A DNA stretch of 64,000 nt from IMG/VR virus record IMGVR_UViG_3300025785_000013, positions 19,478 through 83,477 of that record; one strand, given 5' to 3'. The position numbers and the translations under genes are program-made. The notes below the pieces were generated by a model. It was not told the DNA's origin, did not search any database, and saw only the letters and a program-made list of their open reading frames with translations. Origin of the DNA: a virus. This document shows positions 46,238 to 64,000 of the stretch, piece by piece (within the stretch, counting starts at the first letter, position 1; each line of letters opens with the position of its first letter).

Positions 46238-46266
46238 TTGACTTTGTGACACCGGTACTGTACACT
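46238..46266 (+). promoter_or_regulatory. promoter of candidate ncRNA
   Basis: TTGACT-17 nt (TTGTGACA...)-TACACT. Confidence 0.8.
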
Positions 46267-46272
46267 GGTTTA

Positions 46273-46765
46273 TGTAGGGCGAAGTTGGTTCTACGGAGTT
46301 CCTTGAAAACCGATTTGTAGTTTCTAGGGGGTGTGCGGTAGGCCTTGTTGCTTCGGCTAGCACAAACCCAACGTTTGCTTACTCGCACCTCGCCTAGAGA
46401 TTACAAGTCACCATTCGATGGGTGTGGAGAACCACTTTGGGCAACGGGCTTCTAAGGCACCGTTGTGAGGTGGGGCTACCGCTTAGAACGGGAAATCCCA
46501 ATTTGAGTTCTACGCCAAAGAGTGACGAGCGCGAGCAGGCTGGCAGGCTGGGCTTACCCTTCCACTTGGACGCGTGTGGGCGAGCAGGGTGGTTCTGCCA
46601 GACTTATCGAATGAAACCGAGAACTGCGGTGCCATTATCCGGTGCTGTCATACGGGGCGAACCAGCAACATCGGGGAGAACTAAGCAGGCAGACTAAACC
46701 TTCGGGGCTGGGTAGTGAGAGCAGTAAAGCGACGAGCCTCACCTTTGGGTGGGGCTTTCGCCATT
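46273..46765 (+). ncRNA. candidate large structured ncRNA (~490 nt)
   Basis: Between consensus promoter and terminator-like hairpin (46735-46756); long G-U-containing stems; no credible ORF. Confidence 0.65.
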
Positions 46766-46792
46766 TTCCAAACTCGGCTGTAGCATTTTGGT

Positions 46793-47353: not shown

Positions 47354-47362
47354 GATTAGATT

Positions 47363-47986
47363 ATGAACACCAACCCATTCCATCCCGACAACCTTGACCC
47401 CATTGGTAAGGCGTTTACCGCTATCAAGAAGGGCGACCTGCCCGGCCACGAATTTCACGGAAACCAGTGGACAAAGGAAGAGACGGGCGGTACAGCCCCT
47501 AAGCCACTCAACCCCTATTTCCCCAATCTTCCCGACTTTCACGTAGAGCCGGGGAGAAACGGTTCCACCTTCCTCGTGAGGCGAGGGGGAGCAGAAGATG
47601 GCCTTCCCTTCTGGATTAGCAACGGTGAAATCGAAGTTGAACACAACGGAGAGATAAGTTTTCACGCTCAAGGCTCGGACGATGGCAACCACATTGACAC
47701 CACGCTGCGTGCGTCGCCCCAAAAGGTGTTGACGTACACCGATGACTTGAGTACGGACAGAAGGGATTTTCCCGGTCTGAGTTTCTCCACCACTGGCAAA
47801 GAAGAAGCAGATGGAACGCCACACTCCTTGAGTGACCCTATCTACGAGTTGGGAACCGGCAAGCAGGTAGGAACCTACAAGGATGCTGTCGCTAATCTTT
47901 TCGCCGCCAACGGCACTGGCTCGGACCTTGATGCCGACATTGCGAACGGTCATCAAGAGCCCGACTGGTCCTACTACGGCGACTGA
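47363..47986 (+). CDS. GHxFxGNQ-tag protein, acidic cargo of unknown function
   Basis: MNTNPFHPDNL...IKKGDLPGHEFHGNQW; leaderless after TAGGAT. Confidence 0.8.
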   Translation: MNTNPFHPDNLDPIGKAFTAIKKGDLPGHEFHGNQWTKEETGGTAPKPLNPYFPNLPDFHVEPGRNGSTFLVRRGGAEDGLPFWISNGEIEVEHNGEISFHAQGSDDGNHIDTTLRASPQKVLTYTDDLSTDRRDFPGLSFSTTGKEEADGTPHSLSDPIYELGTGKQVGTYKDAVANLFAANGTGSDLDADIANGHQEPDWSYYGD

Positions 47987-47997
47987 GTATCGAAGTA

Positions 47998-48189
47998 ATG
48001 GCTGGGCGCAAGAAGGCCACCCCAACCCCGGTTGGAAATCACGCAATCACCATCGAAGCCACCAAGAGCCAGATGATGAACCGTGAGTTGTTCCAGCCGT
48101 TCTGCACTTGTGGCTGGACAACCCCGAAGTGGGGAAGTTACGGGCAAGCGTTTGTGGCAGGTGGAAAGCACACAGCCGAACAGAACTGA
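47998..48189 (+). CDS. small zinc-binding protein (H...CTCGW...H)
   Basis: ORF track; motif. Confidence 0.65.
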   Translation: MAGRKKATPTPVGNHAITIEATKSQMMNRELFQPFCTCGWTTPKWGSYGQAFVAGGKHTAEQN

Positions 48190-48308
48190 GTGCGCCGTCG
48201 AAAACGACGGACACCGTAGTAGGTATGACCATTACTACGATTTGTGCCATCATCAACACCATCCTCGGCCTCGCGGTCTTCCATCGCAACCGGAAGTAGG
48301 CTTGTCCT

Positions 48309-48806
48309 ATGACGGTAATCTGCGGTTGGAGTGATGGTGAAAACGCAGTCATCGGCGGCGATTCAGGAGCCTTTGACGAAGGCTCGGCAATCACTACGAC
48401 TAACCAGAAGGTTTGGAAGTCAGTAGAACACCACACGCTCGTCGGAGTGTCCGGCTCGTTTCGCATTATGGAACTCGTTCACCAAAGCGGTCTGGGCGAA
48501 CCTCGGCAACTCCGGGACTACCTCATCACTCAAAGCGAGAAGTCGGGCTTCCCAATATCACCAGACTGGGGCGTACTCGTCGTTGGATTGGAAGGGGTCT
48601 GGGAAATCGGCTCGGACTTCTCTTTAGTGAAATCCTCGGAACGCTACAACGCCATCGGTTCCGGCGGTCTTGCTGCTCTCGCAGCCCTGCACGTTTTGGA
48701 AACAATGGATGACCTATCACCACAGAGCCGCATAAAGTTGTCCCTGTCGGCAGCGATGTACCACACCACCTACGTTCGCAAACCGTTTAAGGTCATTGCA
48801 TTATGA
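48309..48806 (+). CDS. Ntn-hydrolase, HslV/proteasome-beta-like peptidase
   Basis: N-terminal MT, GGDS, K, GVSGS, AIGSGG..ALAAL. Confidence 0.8.
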   Translation: MTVICGWSDGENAVIGGDSGAFDEGSAITTTNQKVWKSVEHHTLVGVSGSFRIMELVHQSGLGEPRQLRDYLITQSEKSGFPISPDWGVLVVGLEGVWEIGSDFSLVKSSERYNAIGSGGLAALAALHVLETMDDLSPQSRIKLSLSAAMYHTTYVRKPFKVIAL

Positions 48807-49162
48807 GTTGGACGCTGGAATACCCTGAACGCCCTTGGACGCTCAACAAGGAACGAACGCTCCACCATATGCAGCGAGCCAAGTTGGTGAAAGAGTGGCG
48901 ACAGGCCTTTTGCGAACTGGCCCAAGAATTTATGGTTCCACATTTGGAACAAATAGAAGTGGTGGCCCAGCCCTACGTTTTGAACGCTCGGTACCGGCAG
49001 GATGTTGGCAACTGTTTTCCAGCAGTGAAGGCAGCCGTTGACGGCCTCGTTGATGCCGGAGTTTTGCTGGATGACAACGCAAACGTGGTACTGAAATTGA
49101 CGTTTCTGGTGCCGAAGTTCGGCAAGGATGCTTTAGAAATAACAATTTCCGAAGTATCATAG
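48803..49162 (+). CDS. rusA: RusA-like Holliday junction resolvase
   Basis: DVGNCFPAVKAAVDGLVDAGVLLDDN. Confidence 0.8.
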   Translation: MSWTLEYPERPWTLNKERTLHHMQRAKLVKEWRQAFCELAQEFMVPHLEQIEVVAQPYVLNARYRQDVGNCFPAVKAAVDGLVDAGVLLDDNANVVLKLTFLVPKFGKDALEITISEVS

Positions 49163-49169
49163 GGAGGCT

Positions 49170-50414
49170 ATGAACTTCCCGACCTACGAGAATCCGACGA
49201 ACTACCCAGCGCAGTCGGTTGTAGATTCGACTGATTTCGCAGCGATTACGGCAGGTTCAGCACTTACCGGTGTCATCTCCGGGTGCGCCGTGACCCCAAG
49301 TTCAGGGATGACCGTCGGGATTGCGAGTGGTGTAATCGCCATCGCAGGTTCTTCCTACTCGGCCAACTCCGGCACGGTAGTGGTTTCAGCAGCCAGTACC
49401 GGTGACCGACGAGACATCGTGTACGCCACTTGGAGTGGCTCGGCAGTTGTCTACAACTATCTTGCTGGAAACGCCTCAACCACGGCGAATTGGCAGTTCA
49501 CGAACGATTCGGCAGCCCCGATTAAGCCGAACCTGCCTGCCAACGCAGTGCTGCTCGCTGAAATCTACGTCGAAGGCACGAACGCCACGCCCACGACAAG
49601 CATCACCACCAACGAGATTTTGGATAAGCGAGTTATTGTCAGCCTCGCCGTGACCGGGCAGACCGACATCTTTACTGGAACGCTGCCACCGGGCAACACG
49701 TTGATGCTCTGGCTCAACACGGCTGCTGCTGGAAACGGAACTCAGGGGCCAACAGGCCCGGCTCCGACTGCAACAATTGGAACCGTCACCGGTACTGGCC
49801 CAACGGGAAGTCCGTCAGTCTCCGTCTCCCAGACCGGCAACACGTTTGCGCTGAGTTTTGTACTTCAGCAAGGAGCCACAGGCTCAACCGGAGCAACTGG
49901 AGCAACCGGCCCAACGGGAGCGACTGGCCCGACAGGAGCAAGCGGAACTAGCCCGACGTGGATGGGTGCAGTGTTTTCAGTAAGTGGCGCAACTGCTGGC
50001 GCAACGCAAACTGCCGGTTTGAATGGCACGACGCTTTCTTGGCTCACTGGTTCCACCACTGCATACAACTACACGGGAACCATTTCTGTTGATGGGACTG
50101 GAACGGTCTTCACCGTGAATACAACTGGCATCTACAGAATTTCCACCTATTGGGTTGCAACTGGACAGGTCAATACCAACTTCAACGCCAAAGTTATTGG
50201 GAGTAATGGCCCAAACCTCGCTTCTACCCTCGTTACCAACTCTGGCTACACGACAACGCAATCAGATTCCTACACGCAGAAGTTGACTGCTGGAAACACC
50301 TTTTCCGTCACTTACGTTGTCGGCAACACGGCACTGAAATTGTCTACTGCTGGTGGTGTCGCGTTTATCAACGGTTCGCAAATATTGTTTGAATACCTGA
50401 GCGCAAACATCTAG
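49170..50414 (+). CDS. fibre/structural protein with collagen-like segment
   Basis: [16 protein letters not shown]...RRDIV...LLAEIYV...I.DKR N-terminal domain; GPT/GAT triplets. Confidence 0.75.
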
Positions 50415-50421
50415 GCCCAGA

Positions 50422-51195
50422 ATGACCCAACTCGCTTACTTTTCACTAGCAGCAACCGTGACGACAGGCAACCCGACAGGACTTGTCGTGCCGGTCAGCA
50501 GCACATCAGGTCTTGCTATTTCGATGTCGGTCATTGCTTCTGGGGTCAACACGACAATTTCCAGCATTGGAACTGGCACCATCACGGTTGGCAGTACGTC
50601 GAACATCACCAACGGCTTGTCGCTAACGATTGGAACGTGGGTCACAGCAGTTGTCGGAGCGCAGGGTGCGACTGGGGCTACTGGGCCTCAGGGGGCAACT
50701 GGTTCCACCGGCCCTCAGGGTTCTGTCGGCCCAGCAGCGACGTTTTCAATTGGAACAGTTTTCAGCACCGGCCCGACAGGAACTCCAAGCGTAGGCATCA
50801 CTGGTACATCTGGTTCTTACGCCTTCAACTTCACGCTTCAGCAAGGCCCACAAGGGGCAACTGGGGCATCTGGTGGCCCAATCGGGCCAACCGGCCCAGC
50901 AGGGCCACCGGCAACGACATCTTCGGCAGCAACTCCGGCAGGTTCCACCATTGTCTCGTACAACGCTGGTTCTGGCGTAACGGTGCTATCTACCAACGTC
51001 AATAGGAAGCAATTCACGGCCACCAACATTGACCCCTCCAACACAATTTGGTTAGCCCTTGGTTCTACGGCAGCCACAGGAAGCGGAATACAATTGTATC
51101 CCGGACAGTCGTGGAACACCTACATCTATGGTGGAACTATCTCGGCCATCACGCTCAGTGGTTCAACTGCGATGTTGACGTTCGTGGAGGTCTAA
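50422..51195 (+). CDS. collagen-like fibre protein with shared C-terminal domain
   Basis: [13 protein letters not shown] repeats; C-terminal NRKQ...N...IWL..G...GIQLYPG. Confidence 0.75.
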
Positions 51196-51473
51196 TGGCT
51201 GCGATTTCAGTATTGTTCCCGACCTACCAATCAGTTCTTGTCGTTCCTGCAAACTCCAGTCGAAAGCAATTGGTTCTGCAAAACGTCAGCACCACGGGAA
51301 ACGTCATTTACTTGGGTTACGGTGCAAGCGGTTCGACTGCTCCTGCAACTTTACGCCAAGGGGTGCGCCTTAATCCAAATGGTGGAATCTTCGTGACTGC
51401 CGCGACGGGTTGGTTCACGGCAGTTTCGACCACTGCTCCCGGCAATGGACTTCTTGTGGGTTGGGAACTATGA
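51195..51473 (+). CDS. small stand-alone paralog of the shared C-terminal domain
   Basis: MAAISVLF...NSSRKQLVLQN...IYLGYG...GVRLNPNGG. Confidence 0.72.
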   Translation: MAAISVLFPTYQSVLVVPANSSRKQLVLQNVSTTGNVIYLGYGASGSTAPATLRQGVRLNPNGGIFVTAATGWFTAVSTTAPGNGLLVGWEL

Positions 51474-53149
51474 GCGTCACCCTTACAGGCCTCACGCACG
51501 ACTACTACCAAAACGCCATCCTGTCTACGGGAACTTCAGCACCGACTGGCTCTACGGCAACCGGCACGGGCTGGTCGCCAAACGCATTAACGAACGCAAT
51601 GGATGGTGGGTTCAACAATTCCACCAACGACCTTATCGCTCACTGGTCGCTCGGTGACATTTCGACAACGGCAGTCAATTCCAGCACTTACGGTTCGCTT
51701 CTCAACGGAACTTACAATTCAACATACGCAGTAACCTACCAACCCAGTATTCTTCCGGGCAGGCCAAACGACCACTCGGTTTTTGTAACTGCTGGTTCGA
51801 CGGTCTACAACGCTGGTGGTGGAATCGTTGTCGGCAACACAACGACCCTCAGTCGTTATTCTGCTAGCAACCTCGCCATCAACGCTTGGATTCAAGTCAC
51901 AGCATCGCCAACGCCGTACTTCTGTCAGGGAAAAAATGCGACGTTCAGCACCACTGGGGGCGTAACTACTGCTGCCGTTTCAACTTCCGACCTTGGTGGT
52001 GGAAACACCGGTTCGGGTTTTGGAGTTGGGAAGTTGTACAACTACGTCAACAACTACTCCCCTACTCAACCGACGAACTGGGTTCAAATTACTGGTGCTG
52101 GAATCCCACCCGGAACTGGCATTTCTAATGTCTCCGTATCCGGTTCGACCACTTACCTCACTCTTACCAACGTTGTCAACGTGTCAAGTTCCAGTGTGGA
52201 CGTGTCCGTCGCAGACCGTTCGCTTTCATTTGGTCGAATCCTCAACAAGGGCGGCGAGTACGAAGTAATTTTCCAAAACACCAACACTCAGAATTACTTG
52301 GTGCAGGTTTTTTCGCAAATTCTTGACCCGTCAAATTTCTTTTCTTCGCTCAACGATTCGGTGTCGCAGAACGACACCTATATGGTCACGGTCAACGTAA
52401 ATGTGATTTTCCCAAGTGGGCAAGCCGAATTGACGGTCTGGGCTAACGGAGTTCAGATTTATTCATATGTTGGCACGTTGGCGAGCGAAGCCGGTCACCA
52501 ATCAACAAACCTGTCGCTTTTCACTGCGCCGACGAACAACCCGACGAACAATCTTTTCAACATCTTTGCAGGATATTTGCAACACGTTAGTTTGGGAATG
52601 TCGCAGACCCCTTACGCCACCGGCCTCAACCAAACATACATTCAGCACCTCTACGTTTTAGGCACTCAGGGGGATTTGTACTACGACCCCAGCAACCCTC
52701 AATACCGCTTCCCGGCCATCGTTGATGGCTCCAACAATTACATTTCAGCACCGAAAAGTGCGTATGCCTACCCGTGGGAAACGACACTTTGTCCGGCAAA
52801 TCCAAAGCGCAGAAACATCACCATCGTCAACGACAGCCCAGTCAACGTGTTCTTGGGCCTCTGCTACACCGACTGCACAATTGCTGGCTTGGAAAGTGGG
52901 AACACAAATCCCCTTCGGATTTCACTGGCGATTGGAAATGATGGCAACACCTACAACTACCGACCTCAAATTGGAAACGGTGGGTTTAATGCTGGTGGAA
53001 ATTTGCCCAGAATTTACGGCTCCGGTATTTACTTGGCTCCAAATGGGGGGAGTTGGTCAAGTGCCTATTATCAAGGCCCGATTTCGGCCATCACCGACCA
53101 GTACGCTGGTTACTACAACTTGACGATTATGGAAGACGTGTCTTCATAA
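51470..53149 (+). CDS. LamG/concanavalin-like adhesin with shared C-terminal domain
   Basis: LIAHWSLGD...A.NSS...NGTY...INAWI...ILNKG...VWANG...IQHLY. Confidence 0.7.
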   Translation: MSVTLTGLTHDYYQNAILSTGTSAPTGSTATGTGWSPNALTNAMDGGFNNSTNDLIAHWSLGDISTTAVNSSTYGSLLNGTYNSTYAVTYQPSILPGRPNDHSVFVTAGSTVYNAGGGIVVGNTTTLSRYSASNLAINAWIQVTASPTPYFCQGKNATFSTTGGVTTAAVSTSDLGGGNTGSGFGVGKLYNYVNNYSPTQPTNWVQITGAGIPPGTGISNVSVSGSTTYLTLTNVVNVSSSSVDVSVADRSLSFGRILNKGGEYEVIFQNTNTQNYLVQVFSQILDPSNFFSSLNDSVSQNDTYMVTVNVNVIFPSGQAELTVWANGVQIYSYVGTLASEAGHQSTNLSLFTAPTNNPTNNLFNIFAGYLQHVSLGMSQTPYATGLNQTYIQHLYVLGTQGDLYYDPSNPQYRFPAIVDGSNNYISAPKSAYAYPWETTLCPANPKRRNITIVNDSPVNVFLGLCYTDCTIAGLESGNTNPLRISLAIGNDGNTYNYRPQIGNGGFNAGGNLPRIYGSGIYLAPNGGSWSSAYYQGPISAITDQYAGYYNLTIMEDVSS

Positions 53150-55476: not shown

Positions 55477-55533
55477 GGTGAAATCCACTACCCCTGTGAC
55501 TGAACCGGTATTCGTGTAGTAGGGTTTCCAAAT

Positions 55534-55677
55534 GTGGAAGAAGTTGATGACCCTACCGACGAGAACGGCTACTGCCCCGTCTGTGGCCCACGCCATTTCT
55601 TTTTGTCCGGCCCTTGGTTTCACCAGCAACACATAGAAGAAGCCAAGAAGCGACATCCATCCAATCCCCAGCAGTGA
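55534..55677 (+). CDS. small CxxC protein (47 aa)
   Basis: Own translation: MEEVDDPTDENGYCPVCGPRHF... Confidence 0.5.
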   Translation: MEEVDDPTDENGYCPVCGPRHFFLSGPWFHQQHIEEAKKRHPSNPQQ

Positions 55678-55702
55678 AATCCCTTTACCCCCTAGGAGAA
55701 CA

Positions 55703-55966
55703 ATGACTGAACCCGTGACCCCACTCCCCGAACGCCAGCCGATGGATGAAGGCTTTTCAGCAGAGGTCGCTGCACTTCTGAGCCACATCAAGGATGTCTG
55801 CAAGCAGATGCGTGAACACGAGAAGGCAGTTATTTCACTGGGCGTAGAGCGTCGCCAGACCGTCACCCGTCTCCGCGAACACGGCGTGACGTGGCGCAAG
55901 ATTGCTGAATGGGCAGGCACGACTGACCAAGCCCTGTACAAGCACCACAACCGGGAAACTAAGTAA
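55703..55966 (+). CDS. helix-turn-helix DNA-binding protein
   Basis: RLREHGVTWRKIAEWAGTTDQALYK; AGGAG RBS. Confidence 0.8.
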   Translation: MTEPVTPLPERQPMDEGFSAEVAALLSHIKDVCKQMREHEKAVISLGVERRQTVTRLREHGVTWRKIAEWAGTTDQALYKHHNRETK

Positions 55967-56004
55967 TACTTGTAGTTGTCACAACCCTATGCTAAAGTGG
56001 GGTT

Positions 56005-58956
56005 ATGCCGACAAGTGAGTTGCTAGCCAAGGCTGTCCAGTATCTCGCTGCCAACTGCGATGGTGCGGTTCAGCAAGATGCCAAGGGGTTCAATGGCCCC
56101 GACAGTCGGTTCGGTAAGGCACTCGCAGCAATCTCCCCTGAAGCGTGGAGCGAAGGTTCCCAGCGTGAAGCGTGGGAGATGCTTTCCAAGTACCGAGGCC
56201 AACTTGCTAGTGGTGGAATTGACTACGACGCTATTCCTGAGCCGTCAAAGGTCAAGGGCCAGAAGTTTGTCCGTGCCGTTGACGTAAAGGCTGGCAAGAT
56301 TCTCGTCTTCCTGCCGTATGGTGATTCGGCGTATCCCAAGGGTGCGCTCAACGCTATGTGGAACCGTGAACTGCGAGGTTGGCAGGTTTCGGTCAGCAAG
56401 TACGGCTCGGTGCTGGACTGGGCGAAGCAGAACAACGTCCCGGTCACGGAGCGAGCCAAGGCGTTGCTGGAAAGTGCGCCCAAGCCAGAACACCCCGACT
56501 ACATCGGTAAGGCAGTATTCCGCAACGGCGAAATCGTGATGGCGTTTGACTACAACCCATCGCTCGTAGATGCTGTGCGCTCAATTCCGGGTCGTAGGTG
56601 GAATGGCGTAGACAAGACGTGGGTTGTCCCCAAGGAGACGGTCAGCATCGTTCGCAAACTGGCGAGCGACTACAACATTGAACTGTCCAAGGGCGTGTTG
56701 GAACTGCCTGAGGTAGAAATCACCACCGGGCCAAAGATTTCGGTTCAAGGCCGGGACTTCGCTATCTCGTTCACCTACGACGCTCAACTGCTCAGCGCAG
56801 TGCGCCAGATGCCGGGTTCGTCGTGGTCACCAGCATTACGGACTTGGGTTGTCCCCATCGAATCCGTAGACGAAGTGCTGAAATTCTCCAAGGAGTTTAA
56901 CGCTGCAATGTCCCCTGAGGCAGTGCGCCTCGTTGACGAAGCCAGCATCGTACAAGAAATCATTGAAGCCTCGGCTGCCAAAGATGCCCAAATCACCATC
57001 AAGGGATTCGGCAGTGAAACACTGCAACTGTTTCCGTTCCAACGTGCCGGGGTTGCCTATGCACTGCGAGCAATGGGATGGGAACACACCAGCGAAGGCG
57101 TGTGGGAGCGCACGAAGAACACCGGTGAAGGTGGGGTCATCGTTGGTGATGAAATGGGCCTCGGCAAGACCTGTCAGGGCCTTGGAATTTTGCAAGCCAC
57201 CCAATCGTTTCCAGCAGTCATTATCTGCCCGGCAAGCCTGAAATTCAACTGGGAGCGTGAAGCCCACAACTGGTTAGGAGAGGCCGGAACCGTCATCCTT
57301 GAAGGAACCACGAAGCCTAATCTCCGCCTGAGCCTGCCTCGCTCGGTCTTTCTTGATGAGCAAGTAAGGTTCCAACTTTTCAGAAAGATACAAGACATCA
57401 AGTTGACGAGCGACGACCCAACCGTATTGAGTTCGCTTCGTAGGGAAGCGCGGCTCCTTGACGAACGTGCGAACATAACTGCGACCACCAAAACTGGAAA
57501 GCCAGTCCATCAAACCCTTGTCAGTGTTGTAAACGACAATAGTCCAAGCCTTGCCGGATTTGGAAATGCTTCCCTCGCCATCAACGATTCCAGCGATGTA
57601 TCCGAGTTGGGCAATATCGTCCGGCAGGTTCAGGGTGCGACCCTCAAATCGCCTATTTCTCGGCTTGGGGTTGGCGAAGTTGTCCAGTCGCTTTTGGAAA
57701 GCAGCGACATTGTGGACGTATCCGGGGAAGTCCTTGACGATTTCGTTGATGTTGTCGCCTCGTTCTCGTCTGGCGACGGCGTTGGCGAGTTCATCAGTGC
57801 TGTATCTAATGCTCATCCCATCATTATAATCTGCAACTACGACATTCTGACCCACTGGGTAGAGCGTTTCACCTCAGTGAAGGGCATCGTGCTAGACGAG
57901 AGCCACTACGTCAAGAACGGCGCAGCCCAGCGTTCCAAGGCAGCCATCAAGTTGTCCGACAAAGTGGTGGAAAACGGCGTTCGTGTTTGCCTGTCCGGTA
58001 CGCCTATCGTCAACCAGCCGTTGGAACTGATGACCCAACTTCGCATCGTTCACCGACTGGATGACTTTGGTGGTGCATCGTCATTCCGCAACGTCTACGG
58101 CAGAGCCAGTGCGAAAAGCCTCGCATCCCTCAATCGCAAACTGCGCTCAATGTGTTATGTCCGGCGCAGGAAGGCTGACGTGCTGACCGAACTGCCACCA
58201 AAGCGTTGGAGCAGCGTGGTGGTGGAAGGCGACGCAGCCGTGATGAAGGAATACAAAAAGGCAGAAGCCGATATTGTGAAATACCTTTCACAACTTGCAA
58301 TGCAGTTTGCCTTGGAATCCGGGGCAAGTTCAGAGGAAGCCCGCAAAGAGGCGTGGATGAAGGCACTCCGAGCCAGAGCAGCAGAGCAACTGGTCGCAAT
58401 CAGCACCCTGAAGCAACTGGCAGCGAAGGCCAAGATGAAGGTCGCCAAGCAGTGGGTAGAAGACTTTCTCGCCAACGACAAGAAACTCGTGGTGTTCGGA
58501 TGGCATCGCACTGTGGTGGATGACATTGCCGTCAACTTCGCCAATGGGGTCAAGATTCAAGGTGGAATCTCGTCAGAGAAGCGTCAAGAAGCCGTTGACC
58601 TTTTCCAAAACTCCGACGAACAAAAAGTCATCGCTTGCAACATCAAAGCAGCCGGAGTGGGACTGACCCTCACGGCAGCGAGCGACGTGCTGTTCATCGA
58701 ACAGGGGTGGACACCGAGCGATATGGAGCAGGGCGCAGACCGTTGCCACCGTATCGGCCAGAAGGACAGCGTGACCGCTTGGCTAATGCTCACGGCAGAC
58801 ACGATTGACGAAGACATCGCAGCCCTGATTCAGCACAAACGCTCCATCGTGGACAGGGCTATTGACGGCACCGACGAAGATGAAGACGAGGAAGGCTCAA
58901 TCGTTGGTGATTTGCTTGTCAGCCTCGCAGAGCGTGGGTTGCAACAGACTAGTTAA
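56005..58956 (+). CDS. SNF2-family (HARP/SMARCAL1-like) helicase with ~165-aa in-frame insertion
   Basis: GDEMGLGKT, PASLKFNW, LDESH, LSGTPIVN, GVGLTLT, QGADRCHRIGQ; repeated IPGRRWN/MPGSSWS HARP-like N-terminal domains. Confidence 0.92.
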   Translation: MPTSELLAKAVQYLAANCDGAVQQDAKGFNGPDSRFGKALAAISPEAWSEGSQREAWEMLSKYRGQLASGGIDYDAIPEPSKVKGQKFVRAVDVKAGKILVFLPYGDSAYPKGALNAMWNRELRGWQVSVSKYGSVLDWAKQNNVPVTERAKALLESAPKPEHPDYIGKAVFRNGEIVMAFDYNPSLVDAVRSIPGRRWNGVDKTWVVPKETVSIVRKLASDYNIELSKGVLELPEVEITTGPKISVQGRDFAISFTYDAQLLSAVRQMPGSSWSPALRTWVVPIESVDEVLKFSKEFNAAMSPEAVRLVDEASIVQEIIEASAAKDAQITIKGFGSETLQLFPFQRAGVAYALRAMGWEHTSEGVWERTKNTGEGGVIVGDEMGLGKTCQGLGILQATQSFPAVIICPASLKFNWEREAHNWLGEAGTVILEGTTKPNLRLSLPRSVFLDEQVRFQLFRKIQDIKLTSDDPTVLSSLRREARLLDERANITATTKTGKPVHQTLVSVVNDNSPSLAGFGNASLAINDSSDVSELGNIVRQVQGATLKSPISRLGVGEVVQSLLESSDIVDVSGEVLDDFVDVVASFSSGDGVGEFISAVSNAHPIIIICNYDILTHWVERFTSVKGIVLDESHYVKNGAAQRSKAAIKLSDKVVENGVRVCLSGTPIVNQPLELMTQLRIVHRLDDFGGASSFRNVYGRASAKSLASLNRKLRSMCYVRRRKADVLTELPPKRWSSVVVEGDAAVMKEYKKAEADIVKYLSQLAMQFALESGASSEEARKEAWMKALRARAAEQLVAISTLKQLAAKAKMKVAKQWVEDFLANDKKLVVFGWHRTVVDDIAVNFANGVKIQGGISSEKRQEAVDLFQNSDEQKVIACNIKAAGVGLTLTAASDVLFIEQGWTPSDMEQGADRCHRIGQKDSVTAWLMLTADTIDEDIAALIQHKRSIVDRAIDGTDEDEDEEGSIVGDLLVSLAERGLQQTS
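57274..57816 (-). mobile_element. LAGLIDADG homing endonuclease gene nested antisense within the helicase
   Basis: LGYIAGIVDGEGSI, VYNTD..LM.WL...GG, Y.W, L.PYL.IKK.RA; TATAAT 6 nt upstream of ATG 57816. Confidence 0.85.
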
Positions 58957-59207
58957 ATCATTTCTGCTTCAGCAGACAGGTTCTTTGCCTTGGCCGAAGC
59001 GTCGTGGGCCTGCTTGTACAGAACCTTGGCGTTAGCCTCATCACCACTGGCGTAGGCGTGTGCAGCACGTTGCCAGAGTTGGCCAGCCTGAATGTGAGCC
59101 TGAGCAGCCTTTTGGAATCGCTCGCTTGCGAGGTCGCGACCACTCCAGCGGTCGGCCTTGGCGACCCAACGAATCAGGGTATCGCTAGTGAAATCAGACG
59201 CATCCAT
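58953..59207 (-). CDS. small Ala/His-rich helical protein with degenerate tag
   Basis: MDASDFTSDTLIRWVAKA; AAQAH/AAHAY/QAHDA repeats. Confidence 0.7.
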   Translation of the reverse strand: MDASDFTSDTLIRWVAKADRWSGRDLASERFQKAAQAHIQAGQLWQRAAHAYASGDEANAKVLYKQAHDASAKAKNLSAEAEMI

Positions 59208-59239
59208 AGATACCAGAGTATCGCAGGGTGCTGGAATTC

Positions 59240-59926
59240 CTACTTGTTCTCGTCGCTACCAAGAACGGCCTGAGCAGCGCGCCACAGGGCTTCTTCGTAC
59301 TTCAACTGGTCGGGCTTCATCTTTGCCTTGGCAGCGTCACGAATTGCCTTTTCATCAGCACTCTTGGTCACGTTCTTCAACTCCATTATGTGGTAGTCGG
59401 GGGTGCCAAACTTTTCGTAGTCCCAGTCGCTGGGAGCGTACTCCTTGTTGAACGGCATCACCTCGGTATCTCTAAACCCCAGTTTACCATAGACTTGGGG
59501 GAGATGCTCACCGAAACACTCAACGTAGTTCACCCCGTGGTTCTTAATGGCATCGTGCAGCATTGCAGCACCACTGCCACTCACGCCCTTGGAGAACAAA
59601 GCCGTGGCTTCGATTCGACCATCACCGTGGTCGTGGATGAGGCAGCCGGTTCGACCATCCGGGGACAGAAGCGGGGTCATCTTCTCGGCCTTAATTTGGG
59701 CGAGGGTGTAGTGATTCACGAACGCAGAGTAGGGATTTCCCTTGAACGCACTGCTGAAAGCCGACAGGAATTCCTTGGGGCTAGTCACTTTGGCGTTTGG
59801 AAACCCACCTTCACCAGTCCGGTATTGGTTCCCACGAAACGGGTGGCCGTCGAAATCGCCCTTGGAAACCGGGTAGGCAGAAAGAGATTTCAGCAGTGAT
59901 GCAGTTGTGAATTCGTCGCCACGCAT
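59240..59926 (-). CDS. GHxFxGNQ-tag protein with GNAT-like domain
   Basis: FTTASLLKSLSAYPVSKGDFDGHPFRGNQY; ALFSKGVSGSGAAML...VECF...LPQVYGKLGF. Confidence 0.8.
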   Translation of the reverse strand: MRGDEFTTASLLKSLSAYPVSKGDFDGHPFRGNQYRTGEGGFPNAKVTSPKEFLSAFSSAFKGNPYSAFVNHYTLAQIKAEKMTPLLSPDGRTGCLIHDHGDGRIEATALFSKGVSGSGAAMLHDAIKNHGVNYVECFGEHLPQVYGKLGFRDTEVMPFNKEYAPSDWDYEKFGTPDYHIMELKNVTKSADEKAIRDAAKAKMKPDQLKYEEALWRAAQAVLGSDENK

Positions 59927-59958
59927 ACTGCCAAGATTACTTTAGTTTTGTAAATGCC

Positions 59959-60105
59959 TTACTTCGGTTCAGCAGTAAGGGAGCCGACATCATCCAAGTC
60001 GCAGGCAACGGCCTTGTTCTTGTGCCGGAAATGGTTTGGAGTGGTGGAACCGGGGACAATGCGCTCAATGCTTGCCCCGCAATTTCGACAACGCAGTTCA
60101 GTCAT
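59959..60105 (-). CDS. small zinc-finger protein (MTELRCRNCG...FRH...C)
   Basis: Own translation, 48 aa. Confidence 0.6.
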   Translation of the reverse strand: MTELRCRNCGASIERIVPGSTTPNHFRHKNKAVACDLDDVGSLTAEPK

Positions 60106-60143
60106 TTCTTCACTCTACCTCAGTCAGTGAAATGTGTCTAGGG

Positions 60144-61736
60144 TCAATCGTCTTGTGGCTCAGCAGCGATGTTCTGGGCTGCCTCGGTTGCTTCGTCTGC
60201 CTTTTGGGAAGCATCAGCAGCAGCAGTAGAGGCGTAGCGACAGTTCCCCATCGAATGGTGAGTGGATGGGGTTGCACCTTCCACCTTCGTGTTGGCAAAC
60301 GCAGCAGCATCGTTGATTCGACCAGCCGTGTAGTGCGCTTGCATTGCATCTCGGTGTGCAACGGAAGCCTGCATCCACGCACGAGTGGCAGCGTTGTCAA
60401 CATTGCCGTTTTCACCACGCAGTTTGTACGCCAACGATTGGAGTTGGTCGGCCATATCTTGATGTCTAATTCCGTATCCAAGGTGGAATCCACCCATCGC
60501 CCGGAAATCTACAGGTGGGGTGTCGAACTTCGCCAGCATCTCTTTAGCGTGAGGGCCGTAGTAGTCGGTTTCCACCATCTTCGTCACAGGCATTGCCTTT
60601 TGGTTGATGGTTGCTTGGAGCGCAGCATTGGAAGCCCGTGCAGCCATTCCAGCAAAAGCGTGAGCCTTATCCCCGGTCAGAGCATTGGAAGCAATAGAGC
60701 CACCCTCAACGGGTCGGATAGCGTCAATCTCGTCAGCAGCCTCGGTGTGGGCAGTTGCAGCGTCACGATGCTTCTGAGCAGCATCACCAGTCAGTTGTGA
60801 TGCCAGAGCCGAGTGTTCAGCAGCCAATTTCCGGTGGGCAGCAGCCGAGCCGGACAGGTCGCCATCGGTGGAAACCCGAAGTGAGTTTGCCTTTTCTGAC
60901 AGCAGCGAAGACTTGTTGCTCGCCGGGTTGTTGCCAACTTTGGAAACGGGGTAGTTGCTCAGGGGTCGCAGTAATGCCTCAACAGTGAAATCCTCAGCCT
61001 TGATAATGGTTGGCTTGGGATTTGGAAGGGCTGCGATTTTGGCTGCGCTTTCTGCTGAAAATCCCTCTAACCCACGGTCATTAAGCCTTTTAATGCCTAA
61101 CATTTCGTGATAGGGATGGCTGTCGGCTGTCGTTTGGTAGGTCATCGTCAACCCCTTATCGGCTGCCATCTGAATCGCCTGCTCCATTAGTGCCGTTGCA
61201 GCACCGGGCATCTTCCCGGTTGAGCCGAGGTAGCCAATGCTGGCTGATGGAAGTATCGGGCCGCTACCGTCGCCCAAGCGTATGTCGGGAGAGTGAATGG
61301 CAACATTTACAGCAGCCACTATTTCGTTGTTTTTGTTGCGAGCAACAAACAAGTGCGATGAAACGATTTGGTTGGGGTTGATTTCACTATTTGCAGCCCT
61401 GAAGTTGGCGTGGGCATACATTGCTGCTTCCCCTAGAAAGCGGATGCCTTGCTGATGGCGAGCGTCCATTGCCTTGTATTCTGGCGTTTCTCGCATTTCT
61501 AGGAATGTGTGGTAAAGGTCACTTATCTTGTTTTCGTTGTCTACGCGCTCAATTTTTCCACCAGCGTCGTAGAACTCTTTGAGGTTCCTTTGGAACGCAG
61601 CGATGTTGGCAGGCATCTCTCCACCCTGACCACCAGTCCACTGATTCCCGTGGAAAACGTGGCCCTGAACGTCGCCTTTCACCACTGGGTAGCGAGCAAG
61701 CCCTTGAAGTAAGGCGTTTGTAGTGAAATCAAGCAC
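60144..61736 (-). CDS. GHxFxGNQ-tag multi-domain protein: GNAT-like plus Ala/His helical repeats, internal second tag
   Basis: FTTNALLQGLARYPVVKGDVQGHVFHGNQW; IGYLGSTGKMPGAATALM...PYHEMLG; internal EDFTVEALLRPLSNYPVSK. Confidence 0.82.
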   Translation of the reverse strand: MLDFTTNALLQGLARYPVVKGDVQGHVFHGNQWTGGQGGEMPANIAAFQRNLKEFYDAGGKIERVDNENKISDLYHTFLEMRETPEYKAMDARHQQGIRFLGEAAMYAHANFRAANSEINPNQIVSSHLFVARNKNNEIVAAVNVAIHSPDIRLGDGSGPILPSASIGYLGSTGKMPGAATALMEQAIQMAADKGLTMTYQTTADSHPYHEMLGIKRLNDRGLEGFSAESAAKIAALPNPKPTIIKAEDFTVEALLRPLSNYPVSKVGNNPASNKSSLLSEKANSLRVSTDGDLSGSAAAHRKLAAEHSALASQLTGDAAQKHRDAATAHTEAADEIDAIRPVEGGSIASNALTGDKAHAFAGMAARASNAALQATINQKAMPVTKMVETDYYGPHAKEMLAKFDTPPVDFRAMGGFHLGYGIRHQDMADQLQSLAYKLRGENGNVDNAATRAWMQASVAHRDAMQAHYTAGRINDAAAFANTKVEGATPSTHHSMGNCRYASTAAADASQKADEATEAAQNIAAEPQDD

Positions 61737-62355
61737 GGGCAGCCTCGCCTAGAAGTTTGACAACATTCTTCACCTCGTCAGGACTCCACGAGTAAGTCAG
61801 TTCGTTGTCGGCAACGTGCGCCCCAAGCGCACCCCAGAAGTCAGCGCCTTCGCCAGTAGCATCAAGTTCAACGCTGTTCCCTTTCTCGGCGGCAACTTGA
61901 AATGCCGTGTGCGCTAAAGCGGTTGCAGCCCCACGGGTTTCACCTGTTGTGCCAATGAAATGGAAATAAGAAATCTTTTGTGCGTCAGTGGCGCTAAGTG
62001 CGCCTACTGGCTTCCCATCACCATCTCTGGCGATGTAAACGTGGTCGCCCCCCACCTGAAGTGCTTCAAGCATCATTCCAGCACCGTCGTGATAATCGTG
62101 AGCAACCGAAAAGGCTTTGATTTCTTGCGTTGCTTGCGCTATTTCGCTAGGTGTGGCATCAGTGATTGACCCGCCATTTGTGTAAAAATGGTTGAGCGAT
62201 GCGCCAAAGCGTGCAACATTTTCTTGGTCAAGCACGCCACCGTAACCCTCAACCCATTGATTGCCGTGAAATGGGTGTCCTTCGTGGTCGCCCTTCACCA
62301 CTGGGTAGCGAGACGCACACTTCAAAAGTTCGGAAGTGAGGAACGGGTTCGCCAT
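61729..62355 (-). CDS. GHxFxGNQ-tag protein with GNAT-like domain
   Basis: NPFLTSELLKCASRYPVVKGDHEGHPFHGNQW; YIARDGDGKPVGAL...FIGTTGETRGAATAL...ADFWGALG. Confidence 0.82.
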   Translation of the reverse strand: MANPFLTSELLKCASRYPVVKGDHEGHPFHGNQWVEGYGGVLDQENVARFGASLNHFYTNGGSITDATPSEIAQATQEIKAFSVAHDYHDGAGMMLEALQVGGDHVYIARDGDGKPVGALSATDAQKISYFHFIGTTGETRGAATALAHTAFQVAAEKGNSVELDATGEGADFWGALGAHVADNELTYSWSPDEVKNVVKLLGEAARA

Positions 62356-62402
62356 AAATCCCATCCTATCCTTGGCTTAGTGAAATCTTGTAGGCTTACG
62401 CT

Positions 62403-63608
62403 ATGACCATCAACGTCAGTTCCGAAAATGTGGCTATTGACAGCATCAGCGTTCATCCGGCCAATCCTCGCCTCGGAGATGTGGCAGCCATCGCAGAATC
62501 ACTGGAGGTCAACGGCCAGTATTCACCAATCGTGGTTTGGAATGACACCATCATCGCCGGAACGCACACTTGGAAAGCAGCCAAGTCGTTAGGGTGGAAA
62601 ACCATCGCCATTACACGCTTCGACGGCAGCGAAGATGACGCACTTCGCATCCTCATCACCGACAATCGCACCAGCGACATCGCTTCTTACGACAATAGTT
62701 TGTTGCTAGATATGCTGAAATCACTGCCTGACCTTGAAGGAACGGGCTTTGAGTTGGCAGATTTGGATGAACTTGACGGCCTGCACAACTCCGAAGGTGG
62801 GGGTGTTTCACCAACGCTCCTAGACGAAGACCCGACAGACAACCTGAACCCACCAGTCAAAATCCAACTTGGTGATTTCTACGGGCAACTTGACCCCACG
62901 CTCCACGACCTTTGGCTCGCCAGCGTGAAAGATGAGGTGGGCGACAAGAAAGCATCCATCAACCGGGAACTTAAAAACCGACTTGACCTGCCAGAGGTTC
63001 CAAAAGTCCGAGTGGTGAAAGAGAAGAATTCTGCCGTCGAAGATGAGCAGAAGGTCACGATGGTGGAAACCGAACTCGTGCCACTGTCCGAACTCCGTCG
63101 CTTCCCCGGCAACCCACGAGAAGGGGACATCGGGGCCATCAGCGAAAGTTTGCGCGTCCTCGGCCAGTACCGGCCCATCGTGGTGAACCGGCGCACCAAC
63201 CAAATCCTGAAGGGCAACCACACGGCAGCCGCAGCATCAGCACTCGGTTGGAAGGAAATCGCCGTGGTGTGGGTGGACGTAAATGAAGTTGCAGCAACCA
63301 AAATCGTCGTGGCTGACAACAGAATATCCGACAAGGCAACCTACGACAACGACCTGCTAGTGAAATCGCTGGCGAAGTTGGACAGTTTGGAAGGTTCCGG
63401 CTTCGACCAAGAAGATGTTGCCGAACTTCGTGCAGGCAAGGATTCCACCAACCCAAAGGAATCCAAATCGAAGTTCAAGATTGGCGACTACGGATTTTCT
63501 GTCCCGGAGAGCATTTACCAATCGTGGGCATCAGACACCCTCGTGCCAGACGAAGCCCTGCACCGTCTCGGACTGCCGTTAACAGCACTGCTACGAGAGG
63601 CAAATTAA
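62403..63608 (+). CDS. protein with two tandem ParB/Srx-like N-terminal domains
   Basis: HPANPRLGDVAAIAESL..GQY.PIVV...IAGTHT..AA..LGW...DNR..D.A.YD occurs twice. Confidence 0.85.
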   Translation: MTINVSSENVAIDSISVHPANPRLGDVAAIAESLEVNGQYSPIVVWNDTIIAGTHTWKAAKSLGWKTIAITRFDGSEDDALRILITDNRTSDIASYDNSLLLDMLKSLPDLEGTGFELADLDELDGLHNSEGGGVSPTLLDEDPTDNLNPPVKIQLGDFYGQLDPTLHDLWLASVKDEVGDKKASINRELKNRLDLPEVPKVRVVKEKNSAVEDEQKVTMVETELVPLSELRRFPGNPREGDIGAISESLRVLGQYRPIVVNRRTNQILKGNHTAAAASALGWKEIAVVWVDVNEVAATKIVVADNRISDKATYDNDLLVKSLAKLDSLEGSGFDQEDVAELRAGKDSTNPKESKSKFKIGDYGFSVPESIYQSWASDTLVPDEALHRLGLPLTALLREAN

Positions 63609-63644
63609 GCAACCCGTAGTAGCATCTCCGCAGGAGGTTCCCCT

Positions 63645-64000
63645 GTGTCTACCAATCCTTTTCATTCCGAAGAATTGCTGAAATCTGTTAGCAACTACCC
63701 TGTGTCCAAGGGTGATGAAGCAGGACACCCTTTTCGCGGGAATCAGTACACGAGTGGCGAAGCATCAGATTTTGCTCGTGACCACACGCAAACCGGTGAC
63801 TTTGCTGCCGATAAGGGCGGGAATGAAAACTACTCCATTGCTGAAAAGCATTACGCTGCTGCAAGGGCTTGGCAAGACGTTGCAAACGGTAAGGGCAACG
63901 AAGCCGACGCTATCGCTGCATCCAAGGCTGCGAATGAACTTAGCAATGGACGTTTAGGTGTCACCGCAGGGCCTGAAGAAGAAACGCCAAGTTCTCCAAA
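63645..64000 (+). CDS. GHxFxGNQ-tag protein, 3'-truncated by window edge
   Basis: Not in ORF track; AGGAGG then GTG: MSTNPFHSEELLKSVSNYPVSKGDEAGHPFRGNQY..., open to window end. Confidence 0.82.
   Translation, partial: MSTNPFHSEELLKSVSNYPVSKGDEAGHPFRGNQYTSGEASDFARDHTQTGDFAADKGGNENYSIAEKHYAAARAWQDVANGKGNEADAIAASKAANELSNGRLGVTAGPEEETPSSP

Follow-up and report, generated by a model that had tools for sequence, protein, structure and literature searches.

A short conserved peptide heading unrelated protein modules of an uncultured phage: a putative head-protease cut site and cargo header

What is a single short peptide doing at the head of otherwise unrelated proteins of one phage? The DNA analysed here (the window, 64,000 nt) comprises bases 19478–83477 of the 83,477-bp IMG/VR record IMGVR_UViG_3300025785_000013, an uncultured phage of actinobacterial type whose record is 69 % complete. 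One short conserved peptide heads 22 unrelated protein modules in the record, five of them in the window. A first-pass annotation had proposed that this peptide is an N-terminal label that addresses diverse cargo to the prohead and is cut after Lys by an XkdF-like protease. On sequence comparison, that interpretation as a whole appears partly supported; the best reading, to which we assign a probability of roughly 0.6, is that the tag joins a head-protease cut site to a protease-independent cargo header, on proteins carried in the capsid.

The tag and its cargo in the record

All five ORFs, on both strands, begin with the shared peptide where the first-pass annotation had placed it (Table 1). 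The tag consists of a leader (~20 aa; 15–28 aa in all five window genes, ending in φ-x-K, where φ is hydrophobic) followed by GDxxGHxF[HR]GNQ[WY], the fuller invariant core being GDxxGHxF[HR]GNQ[WY]TxGxGG. The back-translated core (GGNCAYNNNTTYNNNGGNAAYCAR) occurs five times in the window against 0.00 expected (maximum 0 in 100 dinucleotide shuffles), and third-base identity at identical conserved tag residues is only 50 %; conservation is on the peptide, not the DNA. The tag is covered by no family in a Pfam search and no description of it was found in the literature searched, so it is apparently undescribed. Across the whole 83.5-kb record, ten of the 22 copies lie near N-termini and 12 are internal, at domain junctions (five in a single 2070-aa ORF); the tag is thus not only an N-terminal leader, as had been supposed.

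Table 1. Tag- and leader-bearing features of the window, with the scaffold-like gene (positions in the window)
Feature	Position	Strand	Details
Scaffold-like acidic helical protein	3973–4776	+	phrog_13547; upstream of scaffold and MCP genes
Tagged stand-alone gene, 207 aa	47363–47986	+	Leader 47363–47428; tag (K..GNQW) 47429–47470
Small gene, 84 aa	58953–59207	−	Degenerate leader D-F-T-S...V-A-K, without core
Tagged gene, 228 aa	59240–59926	−	Tag 59822–59863
Two-module gene, 530 aa	60144–61736	−	Tag 61638–61679
Internal leader-only copy	60939–60995	−	aa 248–266 of 60144–61736; D-F-T-V...Y-P-V-S-K, without GD..GNQ core
Tagged gene, 211 aa	61729–62364	−	Alternative Met 62355; tag 62254–62295
Tagged gene ending at record's edge (incomplete)	63645–64000	+	Tag 63708–63749

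The cargo behind the window tags comprises a putative GNAT-fold enzyme, its distant paralogue (61729–62364), helical His/Ala-rich proteins and two orphans. In the rest of the genome, the tagged modules comprise kinases, ADP-ribosyltransferase-like domains, an alarmone-synthetase-like domain and pentapeptide repeats. The cargo of 47363–47986 is an orphan with no Pfam, PHROG or Atlas match, and that of 59240–59926 belongs to phrog_2563 (function unknown; closest Atlas clusters without a name) and recurs in longer tagged proteins (L087, L109, P0095), where it forms the C-terminal module. The only two-module tagged gene in the window is 60144–61736; each of the other four has a single module, except that 63645 is truncated at the window end. 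Gene 60144–61736 encodes leader, tag and GNAT-fold cargo (aa 41–247), then the leader-only junction that the first pass had recorded as a partial copy, and finally a helical His/Ala-rich domain of the kind also encoded by 63645. The two halves are each found separately in other phages, and the junction that separates them corresponds to the N-terminus of stand-alone homologues (L073, L100, L054, L060), so that leader and core appear, on sequence comparison, to be separable elements. The degenerate leader reported at 59207 is likewise present, followed by a DUF1771-like helical segment (E value 5e-5, under the Pfam cut-off).

In an AF2 model of 60144–61736, aa 41–250 reach a pLDDT of ~93 and aa 1–40 (leader and tag) 42–47, i.e. 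the tag is predicted to be unstructured ahead of a confident cargo domain. Foldseek searches with aa 41–247 returned GNAT acetyltransferases as top matches (9evq, 1vkc, 2q0y and 3gy9; E values 2e-4 to 3e-3, target TM up to 0.68); there was no sequence-level match to GNAT in Pfam. The model thus assigns this cargo a GNAT alpha/beta fold, and we consider it a putative enzyme.

Comparison with sister records revealed movement of whole modules. The tag and cargo of 47363–47986 match, at 99.8 % identity, the second of two modules in a protein of the sister record G042. The cargo of 61729–62364 is missing from this 99 %-identical relative through a tag-to-tag deletion (81174–81763 in the record's own numbering). 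In G042, the 63645 gene continues into a second module with an internal leader and tag at its head. The sister records differ by one tag-to-tag deletion and one duplicated tag-plus-cargo module, and such tag-bounded cassettes, deleted and duplicated between 99 %-identical records, show phages shuffling this arsenal.

The window carries MCP, scaffold and tail genes. The five tagged genes sit outside the head operon among replication and partition genes, three on the opposite strand. No protease, portal or MuF gene was found in this record (69 % complete); a second sister, G043 (99 % identical), encodes Portal_Mu and a 621-aa XkdF protein directly upstream of the position of the record's first tagged gene. 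The first-pass annotation had also pointed to φ-x-K-[GAS] junctions at 4000–4776, and the product of 3973–4776 does contain six such sites against ~1.1 expected per 267 aa (from the genome's long ORFs), a modest and composition-sensitive enrichment. The N-terminus of this product is similar to the strand found after XkdF-type protease domains in other phages (E-I-S-L-V-D-R-P...φ-x-K).

Tag dialects and head proteases in other phages

The K-type pattern matched more than 112 stretches in IMG/VR, and at positions that the pattern left free, the matches carried V/I/L at −7 (224/280) and an aromatic residue at +8 (279/280). A profile search returned 2,363 representative proteins (clusters) at E≤1e-3, with up to nine copies per protein. 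Neighbouring tags are, with one exception, separated by 126 aa or more, and in nearly all ORFs at least 59 aa come after the tag; both lengths are of domain size. In these phages, the first copy is internal and without the leader in about 45 % of cases. Together with the 12/22 internal copies here, this means that the ~20-aa leader, proposed earlier as the address, cannot be the address.

The notion of a modular label on diverse cargo fared better, at least by comparison with other phages, where the tag marks head-module proteins and stands ahead of over 25 Pfam families, with portal, MuF and XkdF head-protease proteins among them. Head-gene families among the tagged ORFs were XkdF (×6), MuF (×4+5), Portal_Mu, Phage_portal and Phage_portal_3 (×6), with ART-PolyVal, Zeta toxin, Acb1, GNAT and kinases among the others. 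In the complete genome G004, the head module reads portal, MuF-tag-..., XkdF-tag-Zeta toxin, and every tag is located between the portal and capsid genes. MuF itself is present in 27/41 tag-bearing records, covering all dialects (see below). Another header, K-[YF]-[DN]-P-x-Q-P-R, was seen in XkdF-carrying proteins (P0007, P0008); it shares the arrangement of φ-x-K, short conserved peptide and cargo and differs in core sequence.

The three residues ahead of the core form lineage 'dialects': φ-x-K, [RK]-x-[LA], x-E-[FL], φ-x-L and φ-x-E. One residue is used throughout at −5 in 104/148 multi-tag proteins (1000 shuffles: mean 30, maximum 41). Across 41 metagenomic records, mostly incomplete and many related, XkdF was found in 13/20 φ-x-K records and 0/21 others (Fisher 4e-6), and DUF2213, which matches PHROGs for head-maturation protease, in 5/8 [RK]-x-[LA] records and 0/33 others (7e-5); these statistics are inflated by shared ancestry among the records. 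With the XkdF gene beside the tagged block in G043, the XkdF link predicted by the first pass is borne out at this comparative level. No protease was found in records of the φ-x-L, x-E-[FL] and φ-x-E groups, and neither S77 nor S78 was found in the 41 records, although the S77 control itself matched nowhere. In structure, an XkdF model came closest to the T4 gp21 protease (Z 6.8, 123 aa) and the VZV protease (Z 5.5); the structural match is middling, and Pfam labels XkdF a 'putative' protease only.

Insertion of tag-plus-cargo cassettes at ...[RK]-L-L↓ and ...K-A-A↓ sites is the only difference between near-identical DUF2213 proteins, and the end of the cassette regenerates a similar site. φ-E-K or φ-x-K is found after XkdF domains. 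That dialects track the protease family and that cassettes sit at native sites suggests that the bond after Lys has the properties of a head-protease site, in agreement with the cut proposed earlier. The core itself does not change between phages whose protease families differ. The tag is real, has a modular nature, is widespread and is under selection as a peptide, and its upstream residues co-vary with protease family.

Proposed role and competing explanations

We propose that each tag marks the start of one head cargo module and has two separable parts. The φ-x-K before the core would most likely be the P3–P1 side of a cut site for an XkdF-type head-maturation protease, which inside the procapsid would cut polyproteins into single modules and remove N-terminal leaders. 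The core would become the new N-terminus after the cut and serve as a universal header with any protease family. Candidates for its reader are the packaged DNA, the ejection path and some conserved part of the procapsid. The cargo would travel inside the capsid and would probably reach the host together with the DNA. Cleavage, packaging and delivery are all steps that we infer by comparison. We rejected the idea that the core is merely the protease's recognition sequence, because it is constant across different protease families. Points against our own reading are that a pure cut site would need no ~17 invariant P′ residues, so that the role of the core is not accounted for, that three dialect groups yielded no protease, and that five tagged genes are located away from the head operon.

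That constancy would be easier to understand with a universal receptor than with a protease site, and it favours the best-placed alternative, which we nonetheless regard as unlikely: the tag may be an uncleaved docking peptide or linker that anchors whole polyproteins in the head via a procapsid component (portal, MuF, scaffold, capsid interior or DNA), with the dialects representing lineage drift or a binding epitope. The occurrence of MuF across dialects is consistent with such docking, as is a model of an XkdF-tag fusion in which the core forms a hairpin (pLDDT 60–70). Left unexplained, however, are the residues from −7 to −5, which do not vary within a protein and track protease family, the cassettes located exactly at sites that sister proteins possess without tags, and the N-terminal leader ending in φ-x-K that stand-alone genes have kept.

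The five window genes are surrounded by replication and partition genes, and three of the five run on the opposite strand, which might indicate that the tag sends proteins elsewhere than the virion (host localization, secretion or a cytoplasmic complex) and that proximity to head genes is incidental. We consider this improbable, given the direct fusion of tag and cargo to portal, MuF and head-protease proteins in many phages and the confinement of all G004 tags to the interval between portal and capsid genes. Slightly more doubtful still is a self-processing core, e.g. Asn/Asp-mediated autoproteolysis at GNQ or GD with no dedicated protease. Its invariant D, H, N and Q residues in a Gly-rich loop and its conservation regardless of protease family are compatible with such chemistry, but it shows no similarity to known autoprocessing modules, no Pfam family covers it, AF2 shows no folded catalytic surroundings, and the upstream dialects point to a trans-acting factor. 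Finally, the tag-to-tag deletion and duplicated module might suggest DNA-level recombination joints without peptide function, but invariant amino acids whose third codon positions agree at 50 % are strong counter-evidence, the peptide is kept across thousands of diverged proteins, and no frame-independent occurrence of the DNA motif was seen, making this explanation scarcely credible.

Returning to the cut-site and header reading, a broader form of it, in which a universal core header, read by a conserved part of the procapsid or ejection path, and a lineage-specific cut site with a genome-readable P1 constitute a general system for loading and releasing head enzymes, is one that we hold tentatively, at a little under even odds. 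Phage proteins that are borne in the capsid and enter the host are usually learned of only through virion proteomics of cultured phages. With a header present in 2,363 protein clusters, such cargo could be recognised directly from metagenomes, including anti-defence candidates (Acb1-like, ADP-ribosyltransferase, kinase, alarmone-synthetase and GNAT modules), and the effectors that thousands of uncultured phages carry and probably inject could be listed from sequence. Head-protease specificity would also become predictable (XkdF after Lys; DUF2213 after Leu/Ala with basic P3); we found no published cleavage specificity for XkdF- and DUF2213-type proteases. The header might further offer a handle to load foreign proteins into phage heads.

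Comparison with known systems

The T4 internal proteins (IPI–III and Alt) carry an N-terminal capsid targeting sequence that is removed by the prohead protease gp21. This peptide is short, ends in a φ-x-(P1) protease motif and is borne by proteins that are otherwise unrelated, travel in the capsid and are injected; gp21 belongs to the S77 family and has L/I-x-E specificity. The rare φ-x-E↓GD dialect (L124, P0059, P0077) matches this rule. The leaders of all five window genes end in φ-x-K, but 12 of the genome's 22 copies are internal. There is no sequence similarity to the T4 targeting sequence, the conserved part lies after the presumed cut rather than before it, P1 is Lys, and the 99 %-identical sister record has XkdF (PF14550), not gp21, as its protease.

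Polyvalent proteins, described by Iyer, Burroughs, Anand, de Souza and Aravind (Iyer 2017; PMC5512222), contain 2 to 15 disparate domains per polypeptide and belong to phages or conjugative elements, where they lie within or next to virion or transfer genes; in the phage type, unrelated enzymatic domains (ART, kinases, peptidases, MuF) are strung together beside head genes. The paper predicts that they are packaged and injected with the DNA, with peptidases processing them (zincin-like and assemblin-like domains are the proposed processors). The 2070-aa ORF (L001:9697–15909; kinase-like, HDxFGH, ART-like, SAS-like [PDB 8vx3, E value 1e-14] and pentapeptide domains) and many tagged proteins elsewhere fit this description, and virion genes are nearby here too, namely the MCP, scaffold and tail genes of the window and the portal and XkdF genes upstream in the sister record. 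Neither 'GNQ' nor 'linker' occurs in that paper's text, and no description of a junction peptide was found in the passages searched. The present header differs in that it also stands on single-module, stand-alone genes and is preceded by residues that track XkdF versus DUF2213.

In MuF polymorphic toxins (Jamet et al. 2017; PMC5576092), the phage head protein MuF (PF04233) forms the N-terminus and a variable toxin domain the C-terminus, with an immunity gene next to them; the paper's text contains no wording on linkers, cleavage or a conserved motif. The MuF-tag-effector fusions among tagged proteins elsewhere and the alarmone-synthetase-like module of this genome are reminiscent of these toxins. 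In contrast, neither the record (69 % complete) nor the tagged ORFs of the window returned a PF04233 match, and the element shared here is the header, not MuF.

Tagged genes and their cargo

The first-pass annotation held that dispersed genes share an N-terminal leader that targets variable cargo to the prohead and is cut after Lys, leaving a GDxxGHxFxGNQ N-terminus. The five genes that it named are all present, each encoding a 15–28-aa leader followed by φ-x-K-G-D-x-x-G-H-x-F-[HR]-G-N-Q-[WY], and the two further copies that it reported, a leader-only copy inside ORF 60144 and a degenerate leader, are real (coordinates are given in the table). Here, the tag is φ-x-K plus the core that begins with G-D, and the cargo is the module behind it. 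The back-translated core occurs five times in the window and in none of 100 shuffles. The tag is only partly an N-terminal feature, however, as 10 of the 22 copies in the whole record lie near N-termini while 12 are internal; 17 of the 22 fall within the record's first 17.3 kb, outside the window. Five internal copies in a 2070-aa ORF mark off kinase-like, HDxFGH, ART-like, alarmone-synthetase-like (match to PDB 8vx3, E value 1e-14) and ART+pentapeptide units. A Lys is found shortly upstream in all 22 copies (at -5 in 18, at -4 in one and, in three K-G-G-x-G-S-G variants, ten residues ahead of G-H). The invariant tag residues are encoded by mixed codons (50% third-base identity), indicating that selection acts on the peptide. 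Five tagged genes are positioned outside the main block; three of these are on the minus strand and diverge from a ParB-like gene. Evidently, the label acts in trans, on genes translated apart from the head operon.

AlphaFold2 modelling of residues 1–250 of the 60144 product (15-row alignment) returned a pLDDT of approximately 93 for residues 41–250 and of 42–47 for the leader and tag, and Foldseek assigned the predicted model of the cargo to the GNAT fold. The motif is thus not part of one ordinary folded domain, the finding that would have spoken against the earlier proposal; rather, it is unstructured ahead of a confidently predicted cargo, suggesting that it is a module header. Cargo modules of the window are also found elsewhere, whether inside polyproteins or as genes of their own, and their boundaries coincide with the tag or leader. 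In four other phages, the equivalent of the second half of the 60144 protein has its own gene, and there the N-terminal leader, ending Y-P-V-x-K, is followed directly by cargo without the core, indicating that leader and core are separable elements and that φ-x-K is the constant feature. In Atlas, the 59240 cargo matched unnamed clusters only, and the 47363 cargo had no match. Helical domains with H-x-x-A-A-x-A-H-type repeats (weak DUF1771 match) stand behind many tags; they are a recurrent non-enzymatic cargo that is also encoded by stand-alone leader-bearing genes in other phages.

Coordinates of features in the window, in the whole record (L001) and in other viral records
Feature	Sequence	Position
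Tagged ORF 47363	Window	47363-47986(+)
Tagged ORF 59240	Window	59240-59926(-)
Tagged ORF 60144	Window	60144-61736(-)
Leader-only copy in 60144 product	Window	aa 248-266
Tagged ORF 61729	Window	61729-62364(-)
Tagged ORF 63645	Window	63645 to end(+)
Degenerate leader	Window	59207(-)
H-x-x-A-A-x-A-H-type helical domains	Window	63790-63998, 60144-60930, 58953-59150
H-x-x-A-A-x-A-H-type helical domains	L001	1-474, 530-1120, 1548-2663
Tag and cargo of ORF 47363	Window	47429-47988
Second module in G042	L263	7782-8341
Segment absent from G042	Record	81174-81763 (listed under window 61174-62286)
Scaffold-like protein, N-terminus	Window	3973-4090
Major capsid protein (MCP)	Window	5562-6641
3081-aa ORF	Window	25302-34547
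HslV-family peptidase	Window	48309-48806
Two collagen-like ORFs	Window	49170-51195
Ser/Thr/Gly-rich proteins	Window	up to 55476
SNF2-type helicase ORF	Window	56005-58956(+)
193-aa LAGLIDADG-like ORF	Window	57274-57855(-)
Secreted protein	L001	17539-18123(-)
WhiB gene of G043	L262	1872-2252
621-aa XkdF protein of G043	L262	4014-5876
Tag behind XkdF hairpin	L123	4467-4580

In IMG/VR, more than 112 stretches, a lower bound, matched a degenerate DNA pattern of the K-type tag. Among the matches listed (280 tag copies in 203 ORFs), several positions that the pattern leaves free are conserved: -7 is V, I or L in 224/280 copies, +8 is aromatic in 279/280, -2 is hydrophobic, and +9, +11 and +13 are T, G and G. 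With one exception, 126 aa or more separate successive tags; at least 59 aa follow the tags in all complete ORFs but three, and the first tag lies 10–39 aa from the start in 82 of 149 complete ORFs. A 38-column tag profile retrieved 2,363 representative proteins among 1.84 billion at E≤1e-3 (92 at E≤1e-30; up to nine copies per protein). The tag itself falls under no Pfam family. More than 25 Pfam families occur on tagged ORFs, among them XkdF (6), MuF (4+5), Portal_Mu, Phage_portal, Phage_portal_3 (6), ART-PolyVal, ADPrib_exo_Tox, Zeta toxin, Acb1, GNAT, PI3/4-kinase-like, InPase, NUDIX and 2'-5' RNA ligase.

Searching 50,697 GenBank phages with the 47-aa tag region (tBLASTn) gave no match at E≤1, and no cultured, annotated carrier was identified there; a word-based homologue search with a tagged protein of 211 aa, or with its N-terminal 50 aa, returned only itself and one 80–91% relative. 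Rhodococcus phage E3 gp205 ('structural protein') is 43% identical to one cargo domain but lacks the tag and therefore says little. We conclude that the tag is a real, widespread cargo header, apparently undescribed. Two other viral proteins ending in an XkdF domain (P0007 and P0008) carry a different header behind φ-x-K (…K-A-F-D-P-N-Q-P-R-D…G-x-W), and there may be several header families with one common cut-site logic.

Dialects, head proteases and head association

In the best 150 of the 2,363 profile matches (564 tags), the core is invariant and the three residues preceding it (-7 to -5) fall into separate types, or dialects: φ-x-K, [RK]-x-[LA], x-E-[FL], φ-x-L, φ-x-E and E-K-H (ahead of a G-A-P-V variant). 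Of 148 multi-tag proteins, 104 have the same residue at -5 in all their tags (1000 shuffles: mean 30, maximum 41), and the non-K types recovered from IMG/VR by separate pattern scans are likewise uniform per contig.

Across 41 tag-bearing records, the dialect follows the protease family: XkdF was detected in 13/20 K-type records, including all three with completeness ≥90%, and in 0/21 non-K records, three of which are ≥92% complete (Fisher 4e-6, inflated by relatedness among records). DUF2213, the carriers of which hit PHROGs with the annotation head maturation protease, was detected in 5/8 [RK]-x-[LA] records and 0/33 others (Fisher 7e-5, similarly inflated). The XkdF-bearing K-type records comprise MCP relatives of this phage (G003, G027, G029 and G038) and unrelated phages (G004, G028, G033, G034 and others). 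Peptidase_S78 gave nothing over the cut-off in the 41 records and S77 gave no match there, though its control had no match anywhere either; with these two families looked for, no protease was identified for the φ-x-L, x-E-[FL] and φ-x-E groups. The best structural match of the XkdF model in a VIA wide search was the T4 gp21 protease (Z 6.8, rmsd 3.9 over 123 residues), followed by the varicella-zoster protease (Z 5.5; background 4.3). Foldseek returned no match to the PDB at E≤0.001, and an hhalign comparison of DUF2213 with XkdF was not significant.

Three near-identical DUF2213 proteins with and without cassettes provide a natural experiment (presumed cuts are marked by a slash). One has a tag and cargo cassette right behind …M-R-L-L/, where the others read …L-K-L-L/A-G-H-S, and the cassette ends in another R-T-L/; a second has its cassette behind …F-K-A-A/, where the others go on G-S-R-H. 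The cassettes therefore occupy sites that are present even where there is no tag, which is what exploitation of native maturation sites would predict. φ-E-K or φ-x-K is found behind XkdF domains, and M-Q-K/S and I-Q-K/S lie ahead of the XkdF domain in G043, a sister record of this phage. The N-terminus of the scaffold-like protein (…V-D-R-P-A-H…V-V-M-K/S) is reminiscent of the E-I-S-L-V-D-R-P…φ-x-K sequence behind XkdF-type domains of other phages; it gives the impression that a protease-scaffold fusion has come apart and that this protein is its scaffold half.

G004, a complete genome of 72 kb, has its ten tags in a single block between the portal and the capsid region, in the order Portal_Mu, MuF (with a tag right behind the MuF domain), three tagged proteins, an XkdF(24–144)-tag(K154)-Zeta toxin protein and another tagged protein. 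MuF is present in 27 of the 41 tag-bearing records. With tag and cargo occurring as fusions with portal, MuF and protease proteins, it is hard to argue for a destination other than the procapsid.

An HslV-family (proteasome-like) peptidase (phrog_1040, E value 2e-13), encoded one small ORF downstream of ORF 47363 and adjoining a RusA resolvase, was dropped as the processing enzyme as nothing ties the gene to the head. Homology of the tag to the XkdF C-terminal hairpin (V-K-K-G-E-Y-x-G-F-S-V-H-G in a MAFFT alignment) was not accepted (hhalign probability 2.6%, E value 0.017). In L123, another viral stretch, the tag L-A-K-G-D-F-E-G-H-P-F-R-G-N-Q resembles V-K-S-G-R-Y-K-G-F-S-V-G-G-S-G, the final hairpin of the immediately preceding XkdF domain; this likeness could be mimicry, duplication or chance.

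The source phage, its sister records and recombination at tags

The source IMG/VR record, of which the window covers bases 19478–83477, is single, linear, 83,477 bp long and 69% complete (CheckV), and lacks a portal, terminase, MuF and protease. Its MCP shares approximately 47% identity with Arthrobacter and Microbacterium phage capsid proteins; the first 30 kb of Arthrobacter phage Laroye contain an MCP relative and no tag. Megablast of positions 44000–64000 against GenBank phages found no near-identical DNA. Two sister records of 99% identity, G043 and G042, partly close this gap. G043 reaches 6.6 kb further upstream, where SSB, WhiB, a Mu-type portal and a 621-aa protein are encoded; this protein has XkdF (Peptidase_S78_2) as its C-terminal domain (aa 480–600), and its middle is a poly-Ser/Asp tract of approximately 70 residues, almost only S and D. 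A 403-aa tagged protein follows directly after the XkdF gene, and the 3′ part of its gene is the record's 5′-open first ORF. In the sister record, portal and XkdF protein are hence followed by approximately 17 kb of tagged genes, with scaffold and MCP further on. Two genes point to an actinobacterial host: one for a secreted protein that has a resuscitation-promoting-factor-like transglycosylase motif and, in the sister record, the WhiB gene.

Elsewhere in the window, no Pfam or PHROG family matches the 3081-aa ORF that lies downstream of the tape-measure gene, and the SNF2-type helicase ORF contains, in antisense, an ORF of 193 aa that has a LAGLIDADG-like motif. The probable tail-fibre genes are two ORFs with repeated collagen-like G-x-T/G-P-x triplets and, after them, the genes of large Ser/Thr/Gly-rich proteins.

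The record's end truncates ORF 63645, which in G042, the other 99% identical sister record, runs on into a second module, with an internal leader between two …V-A-K/G-D sites. The tag and cargo of this module are 99.8% identical to those of ORF 47363, which means that the module is genuinely duplicated or that a repeat interrupted the assembly 127 bp earlier. G042 also lacks approximately 590 bp through a tag-to-tag deletion between two GNAT-type genes, which joins the 61729 leader to the 60144 cargo with the loss of one GNAT-type module and is a tag-mediated recombination event. Together, the deletion and the repeated module indicate that tags also act as joints for module gain, loss and duplication.

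Role of the core and comparison with known systems

Approximately 17 residues behind the presumed cut hardly vary between phages whose protease families differ, which indicates that the core has a function beyond protease recognition. AlphaFold2 predicted the core as a hairpin (strands G-H-P-F and Y-V-K-V, pLDDT 60–70) in a natural XkdF-tag fusion and without structure ahead of the GNAT cargo. On sequence evidence, the tag is best read as a head-protease cut site combined with a universal label. The first-pass interpretation is supported in part, as regards a modular label, head association and the link between XkdF and Lys, but the tag is not N-terminal as such and its core is more than a protease recognition sequence.

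A full-text literature search found nothing relevant on the motif, XkdF cleavage or DUF2213; a junction peptide is unmentioned in the key MuF-toxin paper (PMC5576092) and in the accessible part of the key polyvalent-protein paper (PMC5512222). The tagged proteins are not MuF toxins, since the window's proteins carry no MuF, and the tag is not the T4 capsid-targeting sequence, since neither S77 nor L-x-E was found. In its manner of working, the tagged system is nonetheless reminiscent of all three known systems: the polyvalent-protein strategy, the MuF-toxin strategy and the T4 capsid-targeting sequence.
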